Assembly: GCF_001677475.2 (NCBI RefSeq)
Contig: NZ_CP015229.1
Strand: one strand, 5' to 3'
From: Escherichia coli
GTDB lineage: Bacteria > Pseudomonadota > Gammaproteobacteria > Enterobacterales > Enterobacteriaceae
DNA length: 64,000 nt
Part shown: in pieces, positions 14,195 through 64,000 of the stretch
Layout of the letters: each line of letters opens with the position of its first letter
Position numbering within the stretch: the first letter of the stretch is position 1
Notes under the pieces: generated by a model
What the model saw: only the letters and a program-made list of their open reading frames with translations
Told to the model about the DNA's origin: nothing
The model's database searches: none
Translations under genes and position numbers: made by a program

Positions 14195-14320
14195 CGCAGT
14201 GCTCATGCCGGATGCGGCATGAGTACTATATCCTTCCTGAAAATCGCGCAAATTCTATATATTGTAGAGATCATGTAGGCCTGATAAGCGAAGCGCATCA
14301 GGCAATGTTACAAAAAAAGC
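14195..14320. repeat. REP elements and hairpin in the glxK-allE intergenic region
   Basis: gccggatgcggcatgag... and tgtaggcctgataagcgaagcgcatcaggca, followed by hairpin gccacggtataaaccgtggc. Confidence 0.7.
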
Positions 14321-14380
14321 CACGGTATAAACCGTGGCAAAATCCAACATAGCTAAAAATAATCAGGCGAGTGGTATGAC

Positions 14381-35799: not shown

Positions 35800-35876
35800 C
35801 GCGCCCTTAGCTCAGTTGGATAGAGCAACGACCTTCTAAGTCGTGGGCCGCAGGTTCGAATCCTGCAGGGCGCGCC
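35800..35876 (+). tRNA. argU: tRNA-Arg (anticodon UCU)
   Basis: gcgcccttagctcagttggatagagcaacgaccttctaagtcgtgggccgcaggttcgaatcctgcagggcgcgcca; cloverleaf with TCT anticodon; promoter TTGACT...TATAAT upstream. Confidence 0.97.
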
Positions 35877-35922
35877 ATTTCTTCTTCATTTATGCCCGTC
35901 TTATCCGTTTCCGCTTTGCCCT

Positions 35923-46781: not shown

Positions 46782-47114
46782 ATGAAAAAAGCACTGCAAG
46801 TCGCAATGTTCAGTCTGTTTACCGTTATTGGCTTTAATGCCCAGGCTAACGAACATCATCATGAAACCATGAGCGAAGCACAACCACAGGTTATTAGCGC
46901 CACTGGCGTGGTAAAAGGTATTGATCTGGAAAGCAAAAAAATCACCATCCATCACGATCCGATTGCTGCCGTGAACTGGCCGGAGATGACCATGCGCTTT
47001 ACCATCACCCCGCAGACGAAGATGGGCGAAATAAAAACCGGCGACAAAGTGGCGTTTAATTTTGTCCAGCAGGGCAACCTTTCTTTATTACAGGATATTA
47101 AAGTCAGCCAGTAA
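46782..47114 (+). CDS. cusF: Periplasmic copper chaperone
   Basis: 110-aa ORF with signal peptide and His/Met-rich region. Confidence 0.95.
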   Translation: MKKALQVAMFSLFTVIGFNAQANEHHHETMSEAQPQVISATGVVKGIDLESKKITIHHDPIAAVNWPEMTMRFTITPQTKMGEIKTGDKVAFNFVQQGNLSLLQDIKVSQ

Positions 47115-47129
47115 CCCAGGTTTAATGAG

Positions 47130-48353
47130 ATGAAAAAAATCGCGCTTATTATCGGCAGCATGATCGCGGGCGGTATTATTTCTGCGGCAGGTTTTACCTG
47201 GTTTGCAAAGGCTGAACCGCTAGTGGAAAAAACGCCGACCGCAGAACGTAAAATCTTATTCTGGTACGACCCGATGTATCCCAATACGCGGTTCGATAAA
47301 CCAGGTAAATCGCCGTTTATGGATATGGATCTGGTGCCGAAATATGCCGATGAAGAGAGTTCTGCGTCTGGTGTACGCATTGACCCGACCCAGACACAGA
47401 ATCTGGGGGTGAAAACGGCTACCGTCACGCGCGGGCCGCTGACTTTTGCCCAGAGTTTCCCGGCGAATGTCAGTTACAACGAGTATAAGTATGCCATTGT
47501 GCAGGCTCGCGCTGCCGGGTTTATCGATAAGGTGTATCCGCTTACCGTGGGCGATAAAGTACAAAAGGGCACACCGCTTCTCGACCTGACCATTCCCGAC
47601 TGGGTGGAAGCGCAGAGTGAGTATTTACTGCTGCGCGAAACCGGCGGTACGGCGACCCAGACTGAAGGCATTCTTGAGCGACTGCGACTGGCGGGAATGC
47701 CGGAAGCTGATATTCGCCGCCTGATCGCCACGCAAAAAATCCAGACTCGCTTTACGCTCAAATCGCCCATTGATGGCGTGATCACCGCGTTTGATCTGCG
47801 CGCGGGAATGAATATCGCCAAAGATAACGTGGTCGCGAAAATTCAGGGTATGGACCCGGTGTGGGTCACTGCTGCGATCCCGGAGTCCATCGCCTGGCTG
47901 GTGAAAGATGCCTCGCAGTTTACGCTCACCGTTCCGGCACGACCGGATAAAACACTCACCATCCGCAAATGGACGCTGCTACCCGGCGTGGATGCCGCAA
48001 CCCGCACGCTGCAGCTGCGCCTGGAAGTCGACAACACCGACGAGGCGCTAAAGCCGGGAATGAACGCCTGGTTGCAACTCAACACCGCCAGCGAACCGAT
48101 GCTGCTCATTCCGTCACAAGCGCTGATTGATACCGGCAGCGAACAGCGGGTGATTACCGTTGATGCCGACGGGCGCTTTGTACCGAAACGTGTTGCCGTT
48201 TTCCAGGCATCGCAAGGCGTCACCGCGTTACGCTCTGGTCTGGCGGAAGGTGAAAAGGTGGTTTCCAGCGGCCTGTTCCTGATCGATTCCGAAGCCAATA
48301 TTTCTGGCGCACTGGAGCGAATGCGCTCTGAAAGTGCTACCCATGCGCATTGA
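47130..48353 (+). CDS. cusB: Membrane fusion protein of the copper/silver efflux system
   Basis: 407-aa HlyD-family ORF. Confidence 0.95.
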   Translation: MKKIALIIGSMIAGGIISAAGFTWFAKAEPLVEKTPTAERKILFWYDPMYPNTRFDKPGKSPFMDMDLVPKYADEESSASGVRIDPTQTQNLGVKTATVTRGPLTFAQSFPANVSYNEYKYAIVQARAAGFIDKVYPLTVGDKVQKGTPLLDLTIPDWVEAQSEYLLLRETGGTATQTEGILERLRLAGMPEADIRRLIATQKIQTRFTLKSPIDGVITAFDLRAGMNIAKDNVVAKIQGMDPVWVTAAIPESIAWLVKDASQFTLTVPARPDKTLTIRKWTLLPGVDAATRTLQLRLEVDNTDEALKPGMNAWLQLNTASEPMLLIPSQALIDTGSEQRVITVDADGRFVPKRVAVFQASQGVTALRSGLAEGEKVVSSGLFLIDSEANISGALERMRSESATHAH

Positions 48354-48364
48354 GGGAATAGCCA

Positions 48365-51300
48365 ATGATTGAATGGATTATTCGTCGCTCGGTGGCGAAC
48401 CGTTTTCTGGTGCTGATGGGCGCGTTGTTTCTGAGTATCTGGGGCACCTGGACCATCATTAACACGCCAGTGGATGCACTGCCGGATCTCTCTGATGTAC
48501 AGGTGATTATTAAAACCAGCTATCCCGGTCAGGCACCGCAAATCGTTGAAAATCAGGTGACTTATCCGCTAACCACCACCATGTTGTCGGTGCCTGGCGC
48601 GAAGACTGTGCGCGGTTTCTCGCAGTTTGGCGACTCTTATGTGTATGTCATTTTCGAAGATGGCACCGATCCGTACTGGGCGCGCTCGCGGGTGCTGGAG
48701 TACCTCAACCAGGTACAGGGTAAGCTGCCTGCGGGAGTCAGCGCCGAGCTGGGGCCAGATGCCACGGGTGTTGGCTGGATCTATGAATATGCACTGGTGG
48801 ATCGCAGCGGTAAGCACGATCTGGCCGATTTACGCTCATTGCAGGACTGGTTTCTCAAATATGAGCTAAAAACCATCCCTGACGTTGCGGAAGTGGCGTC
48901 GGTGGGCGGTGTGGTGAAAGAGTATCAGGTGGTTATCGATCCTCAGCGCCTGGCGCAGTATGGCATCAGTCTCGCCGAAGTAAAAAGCGCGCTGGATGCT
49001 TCAAACCAGGAAGCGGGCGGTTCGTCGATCGAACTGGCGGAAGCGGAATATATGGTGCGCGCCAGCGGCTATCTGCAAACGCTTGACGACTTTAATCACA
49101 TCGTTTTAAAAGCCAGTGAAAATGGCGTGCCCGTTTATCTGTGTGATGTTGCGAAGGTCCAGATTGGCCCGGAGATGCGCCGGGGCATTGCCGAACTAAA
49201 CGGCGAAGGCGAAGTGGCGGGCGGGGTGGTGATCCTGCGCTCCGGCAAAAACGCCCGAGAAGTGATCGCCGCCGTGAAGGACAAACTGGAAACGCTGAAA
49301 AGTAGTCTGCCGGAAGGCGTGGAGATAGTTACAACATACGATCGCAGCCAGCTCATTGACCGCGCCATCGACAACCTCAGCGGCAAGTTGCTGGAAGAGT
49401 TTATTGTGGTGGCGGTAGTCTGTGCGCTGTTTCTCTGGCATGTGCGCTCGGCGCTGGTGGCGATTATTTCGTTGCCGCTGGGGTTGTGTATTGCTTTTAT
49501 TGTCATGCACTTTCAGGGACTGAACGCCAATATTATGTCGCTGGGCGGTATTGCGATTGCCGTCGGGGCGATGGTCGATGCTGCTATCGTCATGATCGAG
49601 AATGCGCATAAACGGCTGGAAGAGTGGCAGCACCAGCATCCTGACGCCACGCTGGATAATAAAACGCGCTGGCAGGTGATTACCGATGCGTCTGTTGAAG
49701 TGGGTCCGGCGCTGTTTATCAGTCTGCTGATTATCACACTGTCGTTTATCCCGATCTTCACCCTGGAAGGGCAGGAAGGGCGTCTGTTTGGCCCGCTGGC
49801 GTTCACCAAAACGTATGCGATGGCGGGCGCGGCGCTGCTGGCGATCGTGGTGATCCCGATCCTGATGGGCTACTGGATCCGTGGCAAAATTCCGCCAGAA
49901 AGCAGTAACCCGCTCAATCGCTTTTTGATTCGTGCTTATCATCCGCTGTTGCTGAAAGTACTGCACTGGCCAAAAACCACGCTGCTGGTGGCAGCGCTTT
50001 CGGTGCTGACGGTTCTCTGGCCGCTCAATAAAGTTGGCGGGGAATTTTTACCGCAGATCAATGAAGGCGACTTGTTGTATATGCCATCGACGCTGCCGGG
50101 GATTTCCGCAGCAGAGGCGGCGAGTATGCTGCAAAAAACCGACAAGCTGATTATGAGCGTACCTGAAGTGGCGCGGGTATTTGGCAAAACCGGGAAAGCG
50201 GAAACCGCCACCGATTCTGCTCCGCTGGAGATGGTAGAAACGACCATCCAGCTTAAGCCACAAGATCAGTGGCGGCCAGGCATGACGATGGGCAAAATCA
50301 TCGAGGAACTGGATAACACCGTGCGGCTGCCGGGGCTGGCGAATCTGTGGGTGCCGCCAATTCGTAACCGTATCGATATGCTCTCGACTGGCATTAAAAG
50401 CCCCATCGGCATTAAAGTTTCCGGCACTGTGCTGGCGGATATCGACGCGATGGCGGAGCAAATTGAAGAAGTGGCACGAACGGTGCCAGGCGTGGCTTCT
50501 GCGCTTGCTGAGCGTCTGGAAGGTGGGCGCTATATCAACGTTGAGATTAACCGTGAAAAAGCCGCGCGTTACGGTATGACGGTGGCGGATGTGCAATTGT
50601 TTGTGACTTCTGCGGTGGGCGGGGCGATGGTTGGCGAAACGGTGGAAGGGATTGCCCGTTATCCGATTAATCTGCGTTATCCGCAAAGCTGGCGCGATAG
50701 TCCGCAGGCACTGCGCCAGTTACCAATTTTGACGCCGATGAAGCAGCAAATTACCCTGGCAGATGTGGCCGACGTTAAAGTCTCTACCGGACCGTCGATG
50801 CTGAAAACCGAGAATGCGCGCCCGACGAGCTGGATTTATATCGATGCCCGCGATCGTGACATGGTGTCGGTGGTTCACGATTTGCAAAAAGCGATAGCTG
50901 AAAAAGTGCAGTTAAAACCGGGCACCAGCGTGGCATTCTCCGGGCAGTTCGAGCTACTGGAGCGCGCCAACCATAAGCTGAAACTCATGGTGCCGATGAC
51001 GTTGATGATCATCTTCGTGCTGTTGTATTTGGCGTTCCGTCGGGTGGGCGAAGCGTTGCTGATTATCAGCAGCGTACCGTTTGCGTTGGTGGGCGGCATC
51101 TGGTTGCTGTGGTGGATGGGCTTTCATCTTTCCGTGGCGACGGGCACTGGCTTTATCGCCCTTGCCGGAGTCGCCGCCGAATTTGGCGTGGTGATGCTGA
51201 TGTATTTACGTCACGCCATAGAGGCCGAGCCGTCGTTGAATAATCCGCAAACATTCAGTGAGCAGAAGCTGGATGAGGCGTTGTATCACGGCGCGGTACT

Positions 51301-51508
51301 GCGCGTGCGTCCGAAAGCAATGACGGTGGCAGTGATTATTGCCGGTCTGCTGCCGATTCTGTGGGGTACGGGAGCAGGTTCAGAGGTGATGAGCCGGATT
51401 GCCGCGCCGATGATTGGCGGCATGATCACCGCGCCTTTGCTGTCGCTGTTTATTATCCCGGCGGCGTATAAGCTGATGTGGCTGCACCGACATCGGGTAC
51501 GGAAATAA
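48365..51508 (+). CDS. cusA: RND heavy-metal efflux pump
   Basis: 1047-aa 12-TM RND transporter. Confidence 0.96.
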
Positions 51509-51609
51509 AAGCAGGATACCCCGTTTAACCGTGTGGATTGTGTCTTGCGACGATGGGCACTAAATGTTAAAAGGTGCCCCTCAACAAAAAAGACACACAG
51601 GGGAAAGGC

Positions 51610-52986
51610 GTGAAAAACGCGTCAACCGTATCGGAAGATACTGCGTCGAATCAAGAGCCGACGCTTCATCGCGGATTACATAACCGTCATATTCAACTGA
51701 TTGCGCTGGGTGGCGCAATTGGTACTGGTCTGTTTCTTGGCATTGGCCCGGCGATTCAGATGGCGGGTCCGGCTGTATTGCTGGGCTACGGCGTCGCCGG
51801 GATCATCGCTTTCCTGATTATGCGCCAGCTTGGCGAAATGGTGGTTGAGGAGCCGGTATCCGGTTCATTTGCCCACTTTGCCTATAAATACTGGGGACCG
51901 TTTGCGGGCTTCCTCTCTGGCTGGAACTACTGGGTAATGTTCGTGCTGGTGGGAATGGCAGAGCTGACCGCTGCGGGCATCTATATGCAGTACTGGTTCC
52001 CGGATGTTCCAACGTGGATTTGGGCTGCCGCCTTCTTTATTATCATCAACGCCGTTAACCTGGTGAACGTGCGCTTATATGGCGAAACCGAGTTCTGGTT
52101 TGCGCTGATTAAAGTGCTGGCGATCATCGGTATGATCGGCTTTGGCCTGTGGCTGCTGTTTTCTGGTCACGGCGGCGAGAAAGCCAGTATCGACAACCTC
52201 TGGCGCTACGGTGGTTTCTTCGCCACCGGCTGGAATGGGCTGATTTTGTCGCTGGCGGTAATTATGTTCTCCTTCGGCGGTCTGGAGCTGATTGGGATTA
52301 CAGCCGCTGAAGCGCGCGATCCGGAAAAAAGCATCCCGAAAGCAGTGAATCAGGTGGTGTATCGCATCCTGCTGTTTTATATCGGTTCACTGGTGGTTTT
52401 ACTGGCACTCTATCCGTGGGTGGAAGTGAAATCTAACAGTAGCCCGTTTGTGATGATTTTCCATAATCTCGACAGCAACGTGGTAGCTTCTGCGCTGAAC
52501 TTCGTCATTCTGGTAGCATCGCTGTCAGTGTATAACAGCGGGGTTTACTCTAACAGCCGCATGCTGTTTGGCCTTTCTGTGCAGGGTAATGCGCCGAAGT
52601 TTTTGACTCGCGTCAGCCGTCGCGGCGTGCCGATTAACTCGCTGATGCTTTCCGGAGCGATCACTTCGCTGGTGGTGTTAATCAACTATCTGCTGCCGCA
52701 AAAAGCGTTTGGTCTGCTGATGGCGCTGGTGGTAGCAACGCTGCTGTTGAACTGGATTATGATCTGTCTGGCGCATCTGCGTTTTCGTGCAGCGATGCGA
52801 CGTCAGGGGCGTGAAACACAGTTTAAGGCGCTGCTCTATCCGTTCGGCAACTATCTTTGCATCGCCTTCCTCGCCATGATTTTGCTGCTGATGTGCACGA
52901 TGGATGATATGCGCTTGTCAGCGATTCTGCTGCCGGTGTGGATTGTATTCCTGTTTGTGGCGTTTAAAACGCTGCGTCGGAAATAA
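51610..52986 (+). CDS. pheP: Phenylalanine-specific permease (APC family)
   Basis: GTG start at 51610 after RBS aggggaaagg gives 458 aa (VKNASTVSEDTASNQ...); track ORF starts upstream. Confidence 0.9.
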   Translation: MKNASTVSEDTASNQEPTLHRGLHNRHIQLIALGGAIGTGLFLGIGPAIQMAGPAVLLGYGVAGIIAFLIMRQLGEMVVEEPVSGSFAHFAYKYWGPFAGFLSGWNYWVMFVLVGMAELTAAGIYMQYWFPDVPTWIWAAAFFIIINAVNLVNVRLYGETEFWFALIKVLAIIGMIGFGLWLLFSGHGGEKASIDNLWRYGGFFATGWNGLILSLAVIMFSFGGLELIGITAAEARDPEKSIPKAVNQVVYRILLFYIGSLVVLLALYPWVEVKSNSSPFVMIFHNLDSNVVASALNFVILVASLSVYNSGVYSNSRMLFGLSVQGNAPKFLTRVSRRGVPINSLMLSGAITSLVVLINYLLPQKAFGLLMALVVATLLLNWIMICLAHLRFRAAMRRQGRETQFKALLYPFGNYLCIAFLAMILLLMCTMDDMRLSAILLPVWIVFLFVAFKTLRRK

Positions 52987-53017
52987 GGCATTCACGCTAC
53001 ATCCGACAAAACGATGT

Positions 53018-53051
53018 CCGCTCTCATCCATTCGATGAGAGCGGTTTTTTT
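53018..53051. terminator. Bidirectional intrinsic terminator between convergent pheP and ybdG
   Basis: ccgctctcatc-cattc-gatgagagcgg followed by T7. Confidence 0.8.
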
Positions 53052-53053
53052 AA

Positions 53054-54349
<1,296 letters not shown>

Positions 54350-54408
54350 TTATGCAAATCAGGAGAATCTGAGGGGAAATAGCCGGGCAGATGCCCGGCA
54401 AGAGATAA

Positions 54409-55062
54409 TTACACTTCGGTTAAGGTGATGTTTTGCGGCAGACGAGATTTCGGCAGCGTAGCGTTAAAATCTTCAACGCTGTGATGACCCACCGGAACAA
54501 CCACCAGACTGGTGTAGCCTTTCTCTTTCAGACCAAACTCTGCATCGAGGATGGCGGCGTCAAAACCTTCGATGGGTACCGCGTCCAGACCCAGCGCCGC
54601 CACGCCCAGCAGGAAGTTACCGACGTTGAGATAAACCTGTTTTGCCATCCACTCTGCATCATCATGCAGATCTTTACGGTGCATATCGGCGAAGAACTTG
54701 CGACCTTTATCGTTCGCGGCTTTCGCTTCCGGCGTGGCAAAGCGGCCATCAGCATCTTCCTGGTCAACAACCAGCTTCAGCCAGGCATCGTCCATCGCGG
54801 TTTTTGCACAGAACACCACGACGTGCGAGGCATCAAGCATTTTACGCTCGTTGAACACGTAATTACCGGCAGCGGATTTGGCAACACGCGCTTTTCCTTC
54901 TTCCGTGCTGGCAACAATAAAATGCCACGGTTGGGAGTTGGTGCTGGATGGGCTGTATTGCAGTAGCGTTTTGATCTGCTCGGCCTGTTCCGGGGTAAGT
55001 TTTTTGCTGGCATCAAATGCCTTAGTGGAATGACGCTTTAAGGCGACAGAAATGATATCCAT
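54409..55062 (-). CDS. nfsB: Oxygen-insensitive NAD(P)H nitroreductase
   Basis: Start set at [17 protein letters not shown] (217 aa). Confidence 0.95.
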
Positions 55063-55155
55063 AAAGACTCCATGTGAAAGTAATTTTGCGTGCCAGCAGA
55101 TTACAAGGTTCAACAAGAAATGGTAAGCGAGAAAAATGCGCTATAGATTTCCGCT

Positions 55156-55524
55156 TTAGCCTGGACGCACTCTTTTTTGATCGCGTTTAGCCAGACCATC
55201 AACCACCAGATTCCACGAATCGTTGATCAGATCGCGAAGTAACGCTTCGGAGATTTCCTCGCCGGGATACACCGAAATCCAGTGCTTTTTATTCATGTGA
55301 TACCCTGGCTTAATGCTTGGGTATATTTGCTGATTTAACAGGGATTTTTGTGGATCGGACTTCAGATTGATAAAGGGGACGTCGCGCAGCTCCGACGACA
55401 GCATAAAAATTTTGCCGCCAATTTTAAAAACATCGAACTCCGGGCCAAAAGGCCAGCAAAGCTCGACAAAGGGTAACTCAAGGGCCAGGCGTTTCGCCGT
55501 TTCGTGCAGTGATTGCTTATCCAT
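55156..55524 (-). CDS. ybdF: DUF419 protein
   Basis: 122-aa ORF; conserved position after nfsB. Confidence 0.88.
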
Positions 55525-55588
55525 AAACGTTCCTTTAGGCGAAGGAGAATAAGCAAAGTATGCCGCGAAGTTCGGCGATAATCGACGT

Positions 55589-55837
55589 TTAATCCGCTAG
55601 CGAGAACCAGCGTCGCCAGATAAAGCGCAGAACAAAATACTCAATAGCGCCCAGCACTAAAAACCACAGGCAAAACAATAAAGTGTAAAGCTGACTAAGA
55701 TCCATCAGATGAAACATGGTCACCAGTTTTTGTGCCAGCGTCAGCCCCAGTGCGGGGGCGGGCAGCAGCAGGCAAGAGAGGAAAGCCATCAGCAAAATGC
55801 CTGCTGCGGTGGTCAAGGTTTCTAAAGGGTGTTTCAT
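55589..55837 (-). CDS. ybdJ: Small membrane protein
   Basis: 82-aa ORF with two hydrophobic segments. Confidence 0.85.
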
Positions 55838-55902
55838 AACATTGTTAAATGTAAGTTAAAACACCATTGTCAGGGATATTCTTCTGTAAGGCAATTCCCG
55901 GC

Positions 55903-57030
<1,128 letters not shown>

Positions 57031-57472
57031 TTATGTTGGCGTTTTCTATTCAGTATAGAAGTGGGAGCGACTGGGCGAGATGCGGAAGTTCTGGAATGTT
57101 TCTTTTTTTGGTGATGGTGAACTGATTGTGACTGAAGAAGTTTGGCTACTTTTGCAATGTGACAAGTTATGGCAGAGCTGGCTGGTGGCGAAGAATTTTG
57201 ACGATTGAGGCATGCAGAAAAAAACGGGTTCAGCTTCAGTTGATCAAATGAGGAGTGAGAAGTCTGAAACAGGACTAACTGTATAAATAAACAGCTATTT
57301 TGCTGAGGAAGGGTAAGATAACGGCGGGTGCCTGAAGCTTTCCGGTTTCAGGTTTACTCTGAGGTCTGGAAAGATGAAGCCCCAGGAGATATTTCTATCA
57401 ACCCTGGGGCTGCCACTCCAAACCCGAACAATTTGGATGGTAGTCCCTTCTTCGCATGGAGGCAATATAAAC

Positions 57473-57625
57473 ATGCTGACGAAATATGCCCTTGTGGCAG
57501 TCATAGTGCTGTGTTTGACGGTACTGGGATTTACGCTTCTGGTCGGAGACTCGCTGTGTGAGTTTACGGTGAAGGAACGTAATATTGAGTTTAAGGCTGT
57601 TCTCGCTTACGAACCGAAGAAGTAG
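57473..57625 (+). CDS. hokE: Hok-family host-killing toxin, copy 1 (50 aa)
   Basis: [53 protein letters not shown] ggagg; in this copy an upstream ORF is fused in frame (track ORF 57374..57625). Confidence 0.9.
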
Positions 57626-57976
57626 CCGTTGTGCGGGGAGTAATCCCCGCATATCCGGTTGTCAGGTCAGGGTGGTAAGGCACCTGCTTTACACTTTCGC
57701 CCGCGGTCAGCAATGGCTGCGGGCGATGTCGTTTTAAGGGCAATGATCAGTTTTGCCAACAGAAGTCCGAAACAGGATTCACTGTATAAATAAACAGCTA
57801 TTTTGCTGAGGAAGGGTAAGATAACGGCGGGTGCCTGAAGCTTTCCGGTTTCAGGTTAACTCTGAGGTCTGGAAAGATGAAGCCCCAGGATGATATTTCT
57901 ATCAACCCTGGGGCTACCTACCCAAACCTGAACAATTTGGATGGTAGTCCCTTCTTCGCATGGAGGCAATATAAAC

Positions 57977-58129
57977 ATGCTGACGAAATATGCCCTTGTG
58001 GCAGTCATAGTGCTGTGTTTAACGGTGCTGGGATTTACGCTTCTGGTCGGAGACTCGCTGTGTGAGTTTACGGTGAAGGAACGTAATATTGAGTTTAAGG
58101 CTGTTCTCGCTTACGAACCGAAGAAGTAG
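57977..58129 (+). CDS. hokE: Hok-family host-killing toxin, copy 2 (50 aa)
   Basis: Identical 50-aa Hok; overlapping mok frame intact (track ORF 57877..58065). Confidence 0.9.
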
Positions 58130-58250
58130 CCGTTGTGCGGGGAGTAATCCCCGCATATCCGGTTGTCAGGTCAGGATGGTAAGGCACCTGCTTTACACTT
58201 TCGCCCGTGGTCAGTGATGGCTGCGGGCGAATCGTACCAGATGTTGTCAA

Positions 58251-58880
58251 TTAATCGTGTTGGCACAGCGTTATGACTATTTTTTCTTTTATCTGCCAGT
58301 GCACAGCAAACTGCTCATCCTCTAGTCGAATGATGATCTGCTGTTTATTCCAGCTAATTATCTGATAATCCAGAAAACCTTGAGCGGCCTGTATCTTGCT
58401 TGCCTTAAATGCGCTCTCTTTGGCGGAAAATGCCAGTGTCAGCGCCAGAGAAAAGGTTAAACCGCATTCTGCGAGTCGCTCGTGTTCTGCTGGTGTAATA
58501 ATGTTGTCTGTCAATTCTCTTGCGGTTTGTACAGAGAAAATCTCTTCGATATCAATGCCAATCGGTTGACGAGTTACCACGGCTAATGCCGTAGCCCCAC
58601 AGTGGCTAATACTGCCGTATACCTCCGCAGGCCACACAGGTTGGCGTAGCTCGCCGATTGCGGGCACACATTTATAGCCATATTCCCGCAGCGCATAAAC
58701 TGCAGCGATCCGTCCGGCTAAATGCTCTGTTTTACGTTTACGTCCAGCGTGTTGCAGTTGTGCGTAGTGCGGCAGCCAGAGTAAATCCTGCTCGCGAAAA
58801 CTCGCCGGATCAAACTCAACAAAATGCAGCGTATGTCCTGCAAAGGGGAGGGAGGTATGCGTAGTTTTCATGTCGACCAT
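58251..58880 (-). CDS. entD: Phosphopantetheinyl transferase for enterobactin synthase
   Basis: Start set at MVDMKTTHTSLPF (209 aa); the longer track ORF would run into the REP element. Confidence 0.9.
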   Translation of the reverse strand: MVDMKTTHTSLPFAGHTLHFVEFDPASFREQDLLWLPHYAQLQHAGRKRKTEHLAGRIAAVYALREYGYKCVPAIGELRQPVWPAEVYGSISHCGATALAVVTRQPIGIDIEEIFSVQTARELTDNIITPAEHERLAECGLTFSLALTLAFSAKESAFKASKIQAAQGFLDYQIISWNKQQIIIRLEDEQFAVHWQIKEKIVITLCQHD

Positions 58881-58908
58881 ATTAGAGAATGATGACAAAC
58901 GCAAAACT

Positions 58909-59006
58909 GCCTGATGCGCTACGCTTATCAGGCCTACGTGGTCCTGCAATATATTGAATTGGCAAGATTTTGTAGGCCGGATAAGGCGTTCACGCCGCAT
59001 CCGGCA
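58909..59006. repeat. REP/BIME element between entD and fepA
   Basis: gcctgatgcgctacgcttatcaggcctac...tgtaggccggataaggcgttcacgccgcatccggca; near-identical to 554..651. Confidence 0.85.
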
Positions 59007-59044
59007 TGAACGACGCGCACTTTGTCAACAATCTGACGTTAGCA

Positions 59045-61285
59045 TCAGAAGTGAGTATTAACGCTCATATACCACGTACGTCCCGGCTCGTTATAGGTAT
59101 ACGCCCCGGCACCTGCGATATAGTTGGCTCCTGCCAGATCGCCCGTGGTCTGGGCATTGCCCGCACGCCACAAACGCTTATCGAATAGGTTGTCCACGCC
59201 GCCGGTCAGACTGACATTCTTCGTCACATCCCAGGTCGCGCTCAGGCCAACAATGCTGTAAGGACTAATTTCTTTGGTTTCCGGTCCAACCGCTGGCTGG
59301 CCTTTATAGTTGTACTTCTTCGGCTGCTGCTTGCCGTACCAGGTGAAGGTCGTTTGCATCGACAAATCTTCCCGTGCCTGCCAGCTCAGCGTTGAGTTCA
59401 ACGTATACTCCGGGATGATCGACAAACGGTCGCCCGTGGTTTTGTTTTCACTCTTCAGCATATAAGTGATGTTATTGGTCCACATCACCGTTTCGCTAAC
59501 CGGTACGTTTAACGATCCTTCCAGGCCTTCAACCACTGCTTTCGGCACGTTATCCCACTGATAGAGATCGGTGCCGACTGCGTTTTGTCCTACAGCCACA
59601 TAGCCCGCTTCAATCTTATTGCGATAATCGTTACGGAACCATGTGACGCCCGCCAGCCAGCCGTCGCGTTTGAACTCCAGACCAATCTCTTTGTTGATAC
59701 TGGTTTCCGCTTTCAGGTCATCGTTCCCTTGCAGATAGCAGCCGCCCGCGCTGGCATAGCAGCCCTGACCTTTACTGTAGAGAATGTAGTTCGGGTTAGT
59801 CTGGTACAGGCTCGGCGCTTTATAGGCGCGGGCAATGCCCATTTTCAGCGTGAAGTCATCGCCTAAACCTTGCGATATGTTCAGCGCCGGGCTCCAGTTA
59901 TTGCCGACAATACTGTGATGATCGAAACGCAGCCCCGGCGTTACGATGGTGCTGTCAGTCAGCTCCATGTTGTTTTCGGCAAACAGCGAGAAAATTTCTG
60001 CTTTTGAATACGGGCTACGGTCGGTGGCACTCACGCCATCAATAGCGCCACCGGTATTCGTTCCGGTCAGTGCCTGGGTGTTGGAACTTAAGTCCTTCAT
60101 CCGTTGCTGATTCCACTCCGTACCCAGCGTCAGCGTTTGGTTAACGAGGAAATCAATCGGCAGGTTAACTTCGCTGTGCAGCATCACGTCATCAAGATCG
60201 ATATCGACGAAATCCTGTGTCGCTTTTTCGTTAAATTTCCCTTCGGTACCACCCGCCAGACCTTCCGGAATACGCGAGTTACGGGTGTGTTCGTACTGCA
60301 CCCAGTTGCTGGTGGTCACGCCGTTATCCCAGCCACCGTTCCAGGTCAGCGAGTAGTTCTGGCGATACAGGCGGTTGGTTTCATCGCCATATTTCGAGCG
60401 AGTGTAAGCGTCAGAGTTGGTGTTCTGGGTATCGCCCGCATACAGGTTACCCTGGCGGCTGTAACCCGCTTCCAGTTCGAGTGATTGCAGAGGCGCGAAG
60501 TCCCAGCGCACCACGCCATTAATATCTTTGTTGATCACCCCTTCGCGCCCGGCTGGTAACGTCGTGGCATACGTTCCGGCACGCGCGGACTGATGACCCT
60601 GGTTGATATCCCACGCGTCAGCCTGGGTTTTGTCGAGGTTGCCATACAAGCGGAAGCTGAATTCGTCGCCCAGCGGACCGGTCAGGCTGAAGTTGGTGCG
60701 TTTAGTGGCACCTTCCTCTTTATGTTCTGGCGCATTGAAATAAGCGTCCCAGGAGCCGTGCCACTCACCGCTGCCTTTTTTGGTAATGATGTTAACCACG
60801 CCGCCCGCCGCGCCGTTGCCGTAACGCGCAGCTGCCGGACCACGCAGAACTTCAATACGTTCAATCATTTCAGGTGGCACCCAGGAAGTATCACCACGGG
60901 TATCGCGCTCTCCACGCCAGCCCTGACGCACCGAGTTACGGCTGCTGACCGGTTTGCCGTCAATTAAAATCAGCGTGTTTTCCGGACCCATGCCGCGAAT
61001 ATCAATCTGGCGGTTATTACCACGCTGACCACTGGTGGAGTTACCGGTCAGGTTAACGCCTGGCATGGTACGGATAATCTCCGACACATCGCGGGCAACC
61101 GGGTTTTTGCGGATTTCATCTGCGGTGATGGTCGAAACGCCAGGCGCCTGCAAGTTCTGCTCGGCGGCGGTAACGACAATAGTATCGTCATGTGAAACAG
61201 GAGTATCGGTCGGCTCTTGTGCCTGCGCTACCCCATAAATCCCCAGATTGACCAACAAGGCCAGGGAATGAATCTTCTTGTTCAT
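59045..61285 (-). CDS. fepA: TonB-dependent ferric enterobactin outer-membrane receptor
   Basis: Start set at MNKKIHSLALLVNLGIYGVAQA (746 aa); TonB box DTIVVTA; C-terminal aromatic residue. Confidence 0.96.
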   Translation of the reverse strand: MNKKIHSLALLVNLGIYGVAQAQEPTDTPVSHDDTIVVTAAEQNLQAPGVSTITADEIRKNPVARDVSEIIRTMPGVNLTGNSTSGQRGNNRQIDIRGMGPENTLILIDGKPVSSRNSVRQGWRGERDTRGDTSWVPPEMIERIEVLRGPAAARYGNGAAGGVVNIITKKGSGEWHGSWDAYFNAPEHKEEGATKRTNFSLTGPLGDEFSFRLYGNLDKTQADAWDINQGHQSARAGTYATTLPAGREGVINKDINGVVRWDFAPLQSLELEAGYSRQGNLYAGDTQNTNSDAYTRSKYGDETNRLYRQNYSLTWNGGWDNGVTTSNWVQYEHTRNSRIPEGLAGGTEGKFNEKATQDFVDIDLDDVMLHSEVNLPIDFLVNQTLTLGTEWNQQRMKDLSSNTQALTGTNTGGAIDGVSATDRSPYSKAEIFSLFAENNMELTDSTIVTPGLRFDHHSIVGNNWSPALNISQGLGDDFTLKMGIARAYKAPSLYQTNPNYILYSKGQGCYASAGGCYLQGNDDLKAETSINKEIGLEFKRDGWLAGVTWFRNDYRNKIEAGYVAVGQNAVGTDLYQWDNVPKAVVEGLEGSLNVPVSETVMWTNNITYMLKSENKTTGDRLSIIPEYTLNSTLSWQAREDLSMQTTFTWYGKQQPKKYNYKGQPAVGPETKEISPYSIVGLSATWDVTKNVSLTGGVDNLFDKRLWRAGNAQTTGDLAGANYIAGAGAYTYNEPGRTWYMSVNTHF

Positions 61286-61452
61286 TGTTTTATTCCTGCA
61301 TTTTTGCCACGAATTGCAACTGTCGGGCATGGTCGTCATCAACACGACGCATCCCGCTACCGCGAAAACCTTTGATCCTGAAAGACACGCAGTGCAGTTG
61401 GTTAATTAATGTCCGCGCTTCCCACGGCGCGCCATTACGCTATTGCAAATGC

Positions 61453-61480
61453 AAATAGTTATCAATAATATTATCAATAT
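61453..61480. promoter_or_regulatory. Fur box(es) in the divergent fepA-fes promoter
   Basis: aaatagttatcaataatattatcaatat, overlapping matches to the Fur consensus GATAATGATAATCATTATC. Confidence 0.75.
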
Positions 61481-61527
61481 ATTTCTGCAATCAATGAAAA
61501 ATTGCACAGTAAACATGGGGTTATGGT

Positions 61528-62730
61528 GTGGCGGCGTTAAAAGTAGGAAGTGAGAGCTGGTGGCAGTCGAAACATGGCCCGGAATGGCAGCGTCTGAATG
61601 ACGAAATGTTTGAGGTCACTTTCTGGTGGCGTGATCCCCAAGGTTCTGAAGAATACTCGACGATAAAGCGCGTATGGGTCTACATCACTGGTGTGACCGA
61701 TCACCATCAGAACAGCCAGCCCCAGTCGATGCAGCGAATTGCAGGCACCAACGTCTGGCAGTGGACGACACAACTCAATGCCAACTGGCGCGGCAGCTAC
61801 TGTTTTATTCCCACCGAACGCGATGACATTTTTTCTGCACCATCACCCGATTGCCTCGAATTGCGCGAAGGCTGGCGAAAACTATTACCCCAGGCGATAG
61901 CCGATCCGCTGAATCCACAAAGCTGGAAAGGCGGGCGAGGGCACGCTGTTTCTGCACTCGAAATGCCGCAAGCGCCTCTGCAACCGGGATGGGATTGTCC
62001 GCAAGCGCCAGAAATACCTGCCAAAGAAATTATCTGGAAAAGTGAACGGTTGAAAAATTCACGCCGTGTATGGATTTTTACCACCGGCGATGCAACAGCA
62101 GAAGAACGCCCGCTGGCAGTTTTGCTTGATGGCGAATTTTGGGCGCAGTGTATGCCCGTCTGGCCTGGGCTGACTTCGCTGACCCATCGTCAGCAACTTC
62201 CTCCCGCCGTGTATGTGTTGATCGACGCTATCGACACCACGCACCGCGCCCACGAACTGACGTGTAATGCGGATTTCTGGCTGGCAGTACAGCAAGAGTT
62301 ATTACCCCTGGTGAAAGCTATTGCCCCTTTTAGCGATCGCGCCGATCGCACCGTGGTCGCCGGGCAGAGTTTTGGTGGGCTTTCCGCGCTGTATGCCGGA
62401 CTGCACTGGCCTGAACGCTTTGGCTGTGTATTAAGCCAGTCAGGATCGTACTGGTGGCCGCATCGGGGCGGGCAGCAAGAGGGCGTGTTACTTGAAAAGC
62501 TAAAAGCTGGTGGAGTTAGCGCCGAAGGTCTGCGCATTGTGCTGGAAGCGGGTATTCGCGAGCCGATGATTATGCGGGCCAATCAGGCGCTGTATGCGCA
62601 ATTACACCCCATAAAAGAATCCATTTTCTGGCGTCAGGTTGACGGCGGACATGATGCGCTTTGTTGGCGCGGTGGCTTGATGCAGGGGCTAATCGACCTC
62701 TGGCAACCACTTTTCCATGACAGGAGTTGA
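61528..62730 (+). CDS. fes: Enterobactin/ferric enterobactin esterase
   Basis: 400-aa ORF from GTG 61528; esterase GxSxG (GQSFGG); an internal ATG (MFEVTFWW) is an alternative start. Confidence 0.92.
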   Translation: MAALKVGSESWWQSKHGPEWQRLNDEMFEVTFWWRDPQGSEEYSTIKRVWVYITGVTDHHQNSQPQSMQRIAGTNVWQWTTQLNANWRGSYCFIPTERDDIFSAPSPDCLELREGWRKLLPQAIADPLNPQSWKGGRGHAVSALEMPQAPLQPGWDCPQAPEIPAKEIIWKSERLKNSRRVWIFTTGDATAEERPLAVLLDGEFWAQCMPVWPGLTSLTHRQQLPPAVYVLIDAIDTTHRAHELTCNADFWLAVQQELLPLVKAIAPFSDRADRTVVAGQSFGGLSALYAGLHWPERFGCVLSQSGSYWWPHRGGQQEGVLLEKLKAGGVSAEGLRIVLEAGIREPMIMRANQALYAQLHPIKESIFWRQVDGGHDALCWRGGLMQGLIDLWQPLFHDRS

Positions 62731-62732
62731 AT

Positions 62733-62951
62733 ATGGCATTCAGTAATCCCTTCGATGATCCACAGGGAGCGTTTTACATTTTGCGCAATGCGCAGGGTCA
62801 ATTCAGTCTGTGGCCGCAACAATGCGCCTTACCGGCAGGCTGGGACATTGTGTGTCAGCCGCAGTCACAAGAGTCCTGCCAGCAGTGGCTTGAAGCCCAC
62901 TGGCGTACTCTGACACCGGCGAATTTCACCCAGTTGCAGGAGGCGCAATGA
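62733..62951 (+). CDS. ybdZ: MbtH-like protein
   Basis: 72 aa from ATG 62733 (MAFSNPFDDPQGAFYIL...), RBS caggag; 4-nt overlap with entF. Confidence 0.93.
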   Translation: MAFSNPFDDPQGAFYILRNAQGQFSLWPQQCALPAGWDIVCQPQSQESCQQWLEAHWRTLTPANFTQLQEAQ

Positions 62952-64000
62952 GCCAGCATTTACCTTTGGTCGCCGCACAGCCCGGCATCTGGATGGCAGA
63001 AAAACTGTCGGATTTACCCTCCGCCTGGAGCGTGGCGCATTACGTTGAGTTAACCGGAGAGGTTGATGCGCCATTACTGGCCCGCGCGGTGGTTGCCGGA
63101 TTAGCGCAAGCAGATACGTTGCGGATGCGTTTTACGGAAGATAACGGCGAAGTCTGGCAATGGGTTGATGATGCGCTGATATTCGAACTACCAGAAATTA
63201 TCGACCTGCGAACCAATATTGATCCGCACGGTACTGCGCGGGCATTAATGCAGGCGGATTTGCAACAAGATTTGCGCGTCGATAGCGGTAAACCACTGGT
63301 CTTTCATCAGCTGATACAGGTGGCGGATAACCGCTGGTACTGGTATCAGCGTTATCACCATTTGCTGGTCGATGGCTTCAGTTTCCCGGCCATTACCCGC
63401 CAGATCACCAATATTTACTGCACATTGCTGCGTGGTGAACCAACGCCTGCTTCGCCGTTTACGCCTTTCGCTGATGTAGTGGAAGAGTACCAGCAATACC
63501 GCGAAAGCGAAGCCTGGCAGCGTGATGCGGCATTCTGGGCAGAACAGCGTCGTCAACTGCCGCCGCCCGCGTCACTTTCTCCGGCACCTTTACCGGGGCG
63601 CAGCGCTTCGGCAGATATTTTGCGTCTGAAAATGGAATTTACCGACGGGGAATTCCGCCAGTTGGCTACGCAACTTTCAGGTGTGCAGCGTACCGATTTA
63701 GCCCTTGCGCTGACGGCTTTGTGGCTGGGGCGATTGTGCAACCGCATGGACTACGCCGCCGGATTTATCTTTATGCGTCGACTGGGCTCGGCGGCGTTGA
63801 CGGCTACCGGACCCGTGCTCAACGTTTTGCCGCTGGGTATTCATATTGTGGCGCAAGAAACGCTGCCGGAACTGGCAACCCGACTGGCAGCACAACTGAA
63901 AAAAATGCGTCGCCATCAACGTTACGATGCCGAACAAATTGTCCGTGACAGCGGGCGAGCGGCAGGTGATGAACCGCTGTTTGGTCCGGTACTCAATATT
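62948..64000 (+). CDS. entF: Enterobactin synthase component F (NRPS), N-terminal condensation domain; 3' end beyond the window
   Basis: ATG 62948; MSQHLPLVAAQPGIWMAEKLS...; HHLLVDGFSF condensation motif; open to the window end, so absent from the ORF track. Confidence 0.93.
   Translation, partial: MSQHLPLVAAQPGIWMAEKLSDLPSAWSVAHYVELTGEVDAPLLARAVVAGLAQADTLRMRFTEDNGEVWQWVDDALIFELPEIIDLRTNIDPHGTARALMQADLQQDLRVDSGKPLVFHQLIQVADNRWYWYQRYHHLLVDGFSFPAITRQITNIYCTLLRGEPTPASPFTPFADVVEEYQQYRESEAWQRDAAFWAEQRRQLPPPASLSPAPLPGRSASADILRLKMEFTDGEFRQLATQLSGVQRTDLALALTALWLGRLCNRMDYAAGFIFMRRLGSAALTATGPVLNVLPLGIHIVAQETLPELATRLAAQLKKMRRHQRYDAEQIVRDSGRAAGDEPLFGPVLNI

Follow-up and report, generated by a model that had tools for sequence, protein, structure and literature searches.

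Between ybdK and entD, where Escherichia coli K-12 has one hokE unit split by IS186, the window (by which we mean the whole stretch of E. coli DNA analysed here, 64,000 nucleotides in length) has two intact hok/sok-like units in direct tandem and no insertion sequence. Is the second unit a product of the assembly, a recent acquisition of this strain, or a regular form of the locus, and are the two units working toxin–antitoxin modules or remnants of them? We conclude, with a probability of about 0.9, that the locus is the chromosomal hokE/sokE type I toxin–antitoxin locus in two-copy form, and that this form is an old, polymorphic array that is neither an artefact nor specific to the strain.

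Two hokE/sokE units between ybdK and entD

Self-comparison and pairwise alignment identified two direct repeat units of about 470 nt each, at 57258–57727 and 57761–58231 (~57257–57727 and ~57760–58231 by global alignment), that are ~96–97% identical. The repeat search returned them as two blocks, each at 97% identity: 57258–57387 against 57761–57890, with a spacing of 503, and 57388–57687 against 57892–58191, with a spacing of 504, the change in spacing being due to a single-nucleotide indel (ccaggaGATATTT / ccaggaTGATATTT). Counted from the global alignment, the units are separated by one indel and ~17 substitutions; similarity is far lower in the 34-nt spacer and the outer flanks than in the units themselves. 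Unit 1 was also aligned with 36 other E. coli hokE units. (Note that Tandem Repeats Finder gave no output for the window; because its maximum period of 500 falls below the 503-nt period, this silence is not evidence against the repeat.) The features of the interval are as follows.

55903–57021, minus strand: ybdK (ORF list).
57258–57727, plus strand: hokE/sokE repeat unit 1, comprising an upstream region, a leader, the hok coding sequence and a 3′ UTR that contains the hairpin and the fold-back element (pairwise alignment; direct repeats of families D1 and D2).
57473–57625, plus strand: hokE copy 1 coding sequence, 50 aa, with the Shine–Dalgarno (SD) sequence GGAGG at 57458–57462 (ORF list).
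57728–57760, strand not applicable: inter-unit junction spacer of the J1 type (...TGTCGTTTTAAGGGCAATGATCAGTTTTGCCAAC...).
57761–58231, plus strand: hokE/sokE repeat unit 2 (direct repeats, pairwise alignment).
57977–58129, plus strand: hokE copy 2 coding sequence, 50 aa, same peptide, with the SD sequence GGAGG at 57962–57966 (ORF list).
From 58251, minus strand: entD (ORF list).
From 59045, minus strand: fepA (ORF list).

The two units and short flanks account for the whole ybdK–entD interval (57022–58250) with nothing left over, and IS186 is therefore absent from the window. A short repeat of a third family, D3, inside ybdK (56604–56625) seems to match the start region of hok by chance.

Each unit encodes a small hydrophobic ORF of the Hok/Gef toxin family. 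The hok ATGs lie 504 nt apart, each with GGAGG 10 nt upstream, and the two coding sequences differ by two synonymous and no non-synonymous changes, such that the predicted peptides are identical. This peptide matches Pfam HOK_GEF (PF01848; E=1.1e-7) over the whole 42-position model and is identical to RefSeq HokE WP_000956465.1 of strain MS 198-1. The NCBIfam models for HokA (E=4e-13) and for the Hok subfamily (E=3e-10) also matched, both below their curated cut-offs; because NCBIfam had no HokE-specific model passing its cut-off, we relied on Pfam and on RefSeq naming. That the genes are orthologous to hokE is indicated by the ybdK–entD position together with the HokE-type peptide, and the region matches RefSeq loci with the order ybdK-hokE-hokE-entD.

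The non-coding parts of the units also have the composition of a hok/sok locus. In particular, Rfam model RF01794 (gathering score 59) matched both units at full length on the hok-sense strand, which gives each a structured leader with the Sok-complementary region. As the model starts at the 5′ end of hok mRNA, the predicted +1 positions are 57326 and 57829.

57326–57481, plus strand: hok mRNA 5′ leader of copy 1 (Rfam RF01794, 84.4 bits), whose 5′ GGGUGCCU is the tac element.
57829–57985, plus strand: hok mRNA 5′ leader of copy 2 (Rfam RF01794, 86.8 bits).
57632–57651, plus strand: copy 1 post-stop hairpin GCGGGGAGTAATCCCCGC, where IS186 is inserted in K-12; here unoccupied and uninterrupted.
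~58136–58155: copy 2 equivalent of the post-stop hairpin, intact.
57678–57685, plus strand: fold-back (fbi-like) element AGGCACCU of copy 1, pairing with the 5′ end at 57326–57333.
58182–58189, plus strand: fold-back (fbi-like) element AGGCACCU of copy 2, pairing with 57829–57836.
57697–57726, plus strand: 3′ hairpin of copy 1, terminator-like, followed by TGTCGTTTTA (terminator scan; inverted repeat I1).
58201–58230, plus strand: 3′ hairpin of copy 2 (sequence, repeat search).

A fold-back arrangement of tac and fbi elements has been described for hok mRNAs (PMC9841398), and in silico both units have it, with GGGUGCCU pairing with AGGCACCU just ahead of the 3′ hairpin. In copy 1 the pairing appears in both the minimum-free-energy and the centroid folds of 57326–57740 (z-score −6.85 against shuffled sequences), and in copy 2 the 5′–3′ pairing appears in the centroid fold of 57829–58244 (z-score −7.84). 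Each unit ends in a palindrome with a 13-bp stem; no T-run follows the hairpin of copy 2, and the terminator scan reported the copy 1 hairpin only.

In K-12 an IS element lies 22 nt after the hokE stop codon, within hairpin GCGGGGAGTAATCCCCGC, and a 12-bp direct target repeat, GGGAGTAATCCC, is found on both sides of it. The element is annotated there as 'IS4-like IS421 family'; from the K-12 map we take it to be IS186/insL2. Both post-stop hairpins are intact in the window, which therefore does not carry the K-12-type disrupted allele. The K-12 locus occupies the same ybdK–entD site, its Hok peptide differs from that of the window at V8A only, and its Sok-region haplotype and in-frame upstream ATG are those of unit 1.

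A preliminary description of this DNA, made from the sequence alone, had proposed a tandem duplication of hok/sok at the hokE locus between ybdK and entD, with an identical 50-aa Hok ORF, a GGAGG and a terminator palindrome in each unit, and an upstream frame that a 1-nt indel fuses to hok in copy 1 only; it had also held that IS186 is present beside hokE in K-12 and missing here. All of this anatomy was borne out by the findings above. The comparisons of the region with itself and with the hokE locus of other strains, both of which that description had suggested, confirmed the repeat and found such arrays to be widespread.

Frequency and age of the tandem array

In the population set of complete E. 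coli genomes, 5,426 in number, a 1.9-kb query found matches in 5,415, many annotated 'hokE (x2)' between ybdK and entD, and a 121-nt query spanning the junction of copies 1 and 2 matched at least 2,450 (~45%) at a coverage of at least 80%. The two-copy tandem form is the commonest hokE allele in complete E. coli genomes, and in thousands of genomes RefSeq annotates this state as two hokE genes. The K-12-type junction between hokE and IS186 was found in 1,872 genomes (34.5%), and the absence of IS186 is thus the majority state at hokE. The suggestion, implicit in the preliminary description, that the tandem state and the missing IS186 are unusual is not supported by these counts. Single-copy alleles without an IS also exist, and APEC17 carries a three-copy allele. 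(We considered whether the figure of 2,450 had been inflated by joined BLAST pieces and rejected this: single-copy genomes lack the 34-nt spacer and so fall short of 80% coverage, with W46 reaching only 39%. The two-piece junction match in p11A is a genuine two-copy array.)

The nearest complete E. coli genome matches the window at only 97.8% identity in a comparison of 19 kb, which places the lineage of the window within E. coli sensu lato, in a part poorly represented among complete genomes. Identity is 96.7% to Escherichia sp. MOD1-EC7003 and 92–94% to E. whittamii.

The J1 spacer is identical in the window and in four unrelated strains (p11A, C4, 7/2 and APEC17), which points to a common origin of the tandem junction. 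Assembly from short reads can go wrong at tandem repeats of ~500 bp, and a single hokE unit could in principle have been expanded wrongly into two. However, such an error would not be expected to produce two copies differing by ~17 substitutions and an indel, nor a junction found exactly in at least 2,450 complete genomes, identical in five unrelated strains and with homologues in other Escherichia species. We give an assembly artefact next to no probability.

The array also extends beyond E. coli. In a scan of one genome per species, we found hokE-type loci in the representatives of five Escherichia species: tandem arrays in E. whittamii, in Escherichia sp. MOD1-EC7003 and in one divergent 'E. 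coli' representative, and single copies in E. albertii and Escherichia sp. E1V33. In E. whittamii the array is likewise found between ybdK and entD, with a junction that is homologous to J1 but has diverged from it. Another junction type, J2, was seen in MOD1-EC7003, and the later of the two junctions in the three-copy array of APEC17 is also of this type. Because E. whittamii has both a tandem array and a J1 homologue, the hokE duplication predates E. coli on this comparison.

These findings bear directly on the idea that the strain acquired a second copy recently and thereby raised its toxin dosage. Both copies encode the same peptide, as they would after a fresh duplication. Yet the units are 3–4% diverged and carry different Sok-region haplotypes, that of unit 1 being of the K-12 type and that of unit 2 a different, widespread one; the presence of only synonymous differences between the hok coding sequences reflects conservation rather than recency; and the junction shared by E. 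coli and E. whittamii refutes a strain-specific event. A recent duplication is accordingly very improbable.

The old array has not been static. Sok-region haplotypes are independent of position in the array, which indicates gene conversion or recombination between units, and the existence of one-, two- and three-copy alleles is best explained by unequal recombination. The proposal in the preliminary description that recombination between the copies would yield the single-copy state fits the alleles seen at the site.

Predicted Sok RNAs and upstream mok frames

The two units of the window differ in the predicted antisense RNA and in the frame upstream of hok.

57368–57430, minus strand: predicted Sok RNA of copy 1, ~63 nt, with a single-stranded 5′ tail, a GCCCCAGG...CCUGGGGC hairpin and a UUCAUCUUU tail.
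57465–57460 (−35, TTGCCT) and 57442–57437 (−10, TACCAT), minus strand: putative Sok promoter of copy 1, with 17-nt spacing, the −35 element overlapping the hok SD sequence.
57871–57934, minus strand: predicted Sok RNA of copy 2, ~64 nt, with five differences from that of copy 1 in the 22-nt 5′ tail and one nucleotide in the hairpin.
57374–57472, plus strand: upstream (mok-position) ATG of copy 1 and 33 codons in frame with hok, part of the 83-aa ORF at 57374–57625 (class F, below).
57877–58065, plus strand: mok-like ORF of 62 aa in copy 2 that overlaps hok in another frame (class M, the canonical hok/sok layout).

We set the Sok boundaries and promoter by analogy with the Sok sequence of plasmid R1. 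A generic σ70 scan reported no promoter on either strand, so that the hok and Sok promoters were assigned solely by analogy and conservation. Consistent with the putative Sok assignment, the predicted Sok promoter, together with the SD sequence and the start codon, forms a block that is completely invariant in 36 E. coli units, and both predicted RNAs fold as a tail, a terminator-like hairpin and a U-rich end with z-scores of −3.4 (copy 1) and −5.3 (copy 2).

Across units, nucleotide diversity is highest at 57406–57435 (π of 0.16–0.20, as compared with no more than 0.075 elsewhere), a segment that corresponds to the predicted 5′ tail of Sok and its target. Within each of the 15 arrays sampled, the copies can be told apart at 2–8 positions of the 27-nt Sok-tail segment. 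The predicted duplexes between tail and target have energies of −45 and −42 kcal/mol for the cognate pairs and about −28 kcal/mol for the cross pairs, and full-length cross pairing is predicted at about −113 kcal/mol. The divergence of the tails is thus compatible with a partial insulation of the two modules, with cross pairing that would still be strong and may allow cross-repression.

The frame upstream of hok was scored in 37 E. coli units from 21 loci, and it falls into three classes.

Class M: canonical 62-aa out-of-frame mok, 14 of 37 units.
Class F: 83-aa frame that runs from the upstream ATG into hok, 15 of 37 units.
Class T: truncated frame of 17–22 aa, 8 of 37 units.

In the window unit 1 is of class F and unit 2 of class M, an order also found in the array of strain MS10711. 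The predicted N-terminal extension of copy 1 is identical in K-12, ACN002, GF130 and copy 1 of MS10711, so the in-frame fusion noted in the preliminary description is not peculiar to this sequence. Class F is, in fact, the commonest state in the genus and the K-12 allele; it is found in five of the six single-copy alleles, and also in E. albertii, E. whittamii and E1V33. Judging from this distribution, the in-frame upstream ATG is probably the ancestral state in the genus. A scheme in which class M is ancestral and each array keeps exactly one such copy lost ground on comparison with other species, E. albertii and E. whittamii among them, in which all the frames are either in-frame or truncated. 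At the position of the indel, copy 2 of the window has a T where other sampled units of its haplotype have a C, a change that is synonymous in mok.

In plasmid R1, translation of mok is required only as far as the hok SD sequence, the Mok product itself being dispensable (PMC9841398; PMC4147584), and premature mok stops upstream of the hok start abolish synthesis of Hok (PMC9841398). Because reading as far as the SD sequence is what R1 requires, classes M and F should alike lead ribosomes to where hok starts; class T, in which the frame stops at least 17 nt upstream of the hok SD sequence, is probably silent. By the same analogy, in both copies of the window a ribosome starting at the upstream ATG would get as far as the start of hok.

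A single class M copy is present in 13 of the 15 E. coli arrays, and no array has two. These arrays are phylogenetically non-independent and reduce to ~8 distinct configurations, and E. whittamii (F,F), MOD1-EC7003 (T,T) and the O157 lineage (T,F) do not follow the pattern; it is suggestive only.

Together, the Sok tails and the mok frames raise the possibility that the units are differentiated paralogues, in which selection on the Sok-target region keeps the units apart, such that a given Sok acts chiefly on the hok mRNA of its own unit, and in which the copies differ in translational competence. The position of the diversity peak in the predicted 5′ tail of Sok, the differences within every sampled array, the weaker cross duplexes between tails and the prevalence of arrays with a single canonical mok would all be expected on such a reading. 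Against this, the cross duplexes are still very stable, the mok pattern has the exceptions and the small number of independent configurations just given, and the diversity peak may mark no more than the stretch of the leader under least constraint. We therefore regard differentiation of this kind as rather doubtful. More doubtful still is the extended proposal that the array has been kept since before the split of E. coli and E. whittamii because its units are functionally distinct, with insulation by the Sok tail and a mok frame that sets which copy is competent; recombination would then act as a switch of toxin state and not merely of dosage.

Functional state and related systems

For the reading that we prefer, an old and polymorphic hokE/sokE array, a working model can be drawn largely from R1. 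Each unit would give rise to a stable hok mRNA in which the pairing of 5′ GGGUGCCU with 3′ AGGCACCU keeps the full-length RNA untranslatable. Trimming of the 3′ end would then allow ribosomes to start at the mok-position ATG and to read as far as the hok SD sequence, leading to translation of the 50-aa membrane toxin. The cis-encoded Sok of ~63 nt, from a promoter overlapping the hok SD sequence, would pair with the region of the mok start, blocking translation and leading to cleavage by RNase III. Copy number would shift between one, two and three by unequal homologous recombination, with gene conversion shuffling the units, and in K-12 and about a third of sequenced strains there is instead a single unit, in which IS186 in the post-stop hairpin cuts the 3′ fold-back element off from the mRNA. 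Two features of the window sit awkwardly with this model: the hairpin of copy 2 is without a U-tract, and in copy 1 the frame upstream of hok is not the out-of-frame mok of the canonical arrangement.

Are the units instead decaying relics, one or both of them non-functional, neutral and re-homogenised by gene conversion? Earlier work found that the chromosomal loci hokA, hokB and hokC gave no post-segregational killing, and they were proposed to be inactive (as summarised in bioRxiv 10.1101/2025.08.07.668861). The high polymorphism of the mok frame, in which M, F and T make up 14, 15 and 8 of 37 units, points in the same direction, as do the early stops of class T, of a kind that abolishes Hok translation in R1, and the disruption of hokE by IS186 in about a third of genomes. 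However, over 26 distinct hokE alleles (45 units from five Escherichia species) the hok coding sequence has a pN/pS of 0.12, a value that argues against simple pseudogene decay; on this measure the Hok coding sequence is under purifying selection. The SD sequence, the start codon and the predicted Sok-promoter block are invariant, the tac/fbi pairing and the Rfam structure are kept in both copies of the window, and neither copy is of class T. We consider decay possible, though unlikely. (Note that K-12 HokE is listed, in the same preprint, among control sequences previously shown to be toxic.)

That hokE occurs as a two-copy array is real, ordinary and already known. RefSeq two-copy arrays in C4, 7/2, O157:H7 ATCC 35150 and O26:H11 11368 have the same site, the J1 junction, a ~503-nt period and two annotated hokE genes, and they differ from the window in allelic detail only. 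Tandem Hok 'islets' of 2–6 copies that arose by local duplication have been described (bioRxiv 10.1101/2025.08.07.668861) and make up 13.5% of Escherichia chromosomal hok genes; the window has such an islet by the definition given there, namely at least two hok homologues less than 2 kb apart with at least 60% peptide identity. In the passages searched, Hok peptides alone are analysed, mok and Sok are stated not to be covered, and a term search found no mention of ybdK or entD. A whole-word search of the literature for hokE/sokE returned incidental mentions only.

As a discovery, the two-copy hokE locus therefore matters little, being the commonest state, present in RefSeq and of a kind already described. 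What the comparison adds is two minor new points, the concentration of inter-copy variation in the predicted recognition tail of Sok and the purifying selection on the hok coding sequence. For specialists in toxin–antitoxin systems of type I, variation of the Sok tail, the three states of the mok frame, with the in-frame state apparently ancestral, and the selection on Hok offer a modest lead on a matter of long standing, namely whether the hok loci of the chromosome have a function. A more practical consequence is that K-12, with one unit and IS186, is a poor reference for hokE, such that the 'differences from K-12' found here are ordinary wild-type variation.

Among known systems, there is also a likeness to hok/sok/mok (parB) of plasmid R1, with which the window shares RF01794, PF01848, the predicted tac/fbi pairing, an ORF at the upstream mok position, and a predicted antisense RNA, composed of a 5′ tail and a hairpin, whose putative −35 element overlaps the hok SD sequence. 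Unlike R1, the window locus is chromosomal and tandem, and the upstream ATG of its copy 1 is in frame with hok rather than opening an out-of-frame mok. Type I modules duplicated within one intergenic region, in copy numbers that vary between strains, are also known from ldr/rdl, ibs/sib and zorO-orzO/zorP-orzP (PMC2887945; PMC11264685), whose toxin and RNA families are unrelated to hok/sok.

Variation of the hokE array among strains

The array in the window consists of two hokE/sokE units joined by a spacer of type J1, one of the two types of spacer sequence (J1 and J2) that join adjacent hokE units. In strain APEC17, the array (positions 1416-2575 of the comparison locus) contains three copies of hokE with junctions of both types, J1 followed by J2, whereas J2 is the sole junction type in Escherichia sp. 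MOD1-EC7003 and in MS10711. That APEC17 combines the two junctions, while these other strains have J2 alone, hints that the ancestral hokE array may have had at least three units, and that two-copy alleles may have arisen from it through different deletions. The DNA beyond the array also differs among strains. In particular, two genes for SDR-family oxidoreductases, rather than entD, come after the final hokE unit in p11A, S3, MS10711 and MOD1-EC7003; because this gene pair replaces entD as the neighbor in some strains, a strain-variable insertion adjoins the hokE array.

Codon 46 of hokE is TAC and the next base is G, and the resulting TACG motif is kept in both copies in the window (codon 46 at 57608-57610 in copy 1 and 58112-58114 in copy 2). 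On the opposite strand, each unit contains an ORF that overlaps the hok leader and start:

57295-57504, minus strand, antisense ORF
57856-58008, minus strand, antisense ORF

Equivalents elsewhere are annotated by RefSeq/PGAP as "hypothetical protein", mostly flagged as frameshifted or as containing an internal stop, and the antisense ORF is probably a spurious gene call across the region of Sok, the predicted antisense RNA.

Lineage of the window

Among 5,426 complete E. coli genomes, the best identity to positions 45000-64000 was only 97.8% over 19 kb, and that to the first 3 kb of the window was about 98.2%. The window thus appears to come from a lineage of E. coli, or from a close relative, that is sparsely sampled in the set of complete genomes.

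A dinQ/agrB-like locus and other elements

The interval between ybbP and mnmH contains a type I toxin locus resembling dinQ/agrB (755-1190). Here, the Rfam AgrB match at 1100-1190 scored 50.3 bits (gathering score 40), and the final part of a minus-strand ORF (755-910) encodes a DinQ-like peptide, MKTFLDKVLIVLKALIALLELIRQFIE; matching genomes carry the RefSeq annotation "dinQ" at the corresponding place. Since only 1,750 of the 5,426 genomes covered at least 80% of the 3-kb query, this locus may, like hokE, be a variable type I toxin–antitoxin site, the second one in the window.

An sRNA match and a tRNA lie elsewhere in the window:

14308-14374, STnc480 sRNA match (87.6 bits)
35801-35877, tRNA-Arg(TCT), at the argU position

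In K-12, argU is a known site of prophage integration. Between entD and fepA lies a REP-like element (58930-59035) with an ES036 match of 42.2 bits, above the Rfam gathering score; its matches to naRNA4 and Ysr224 fall below threshold.
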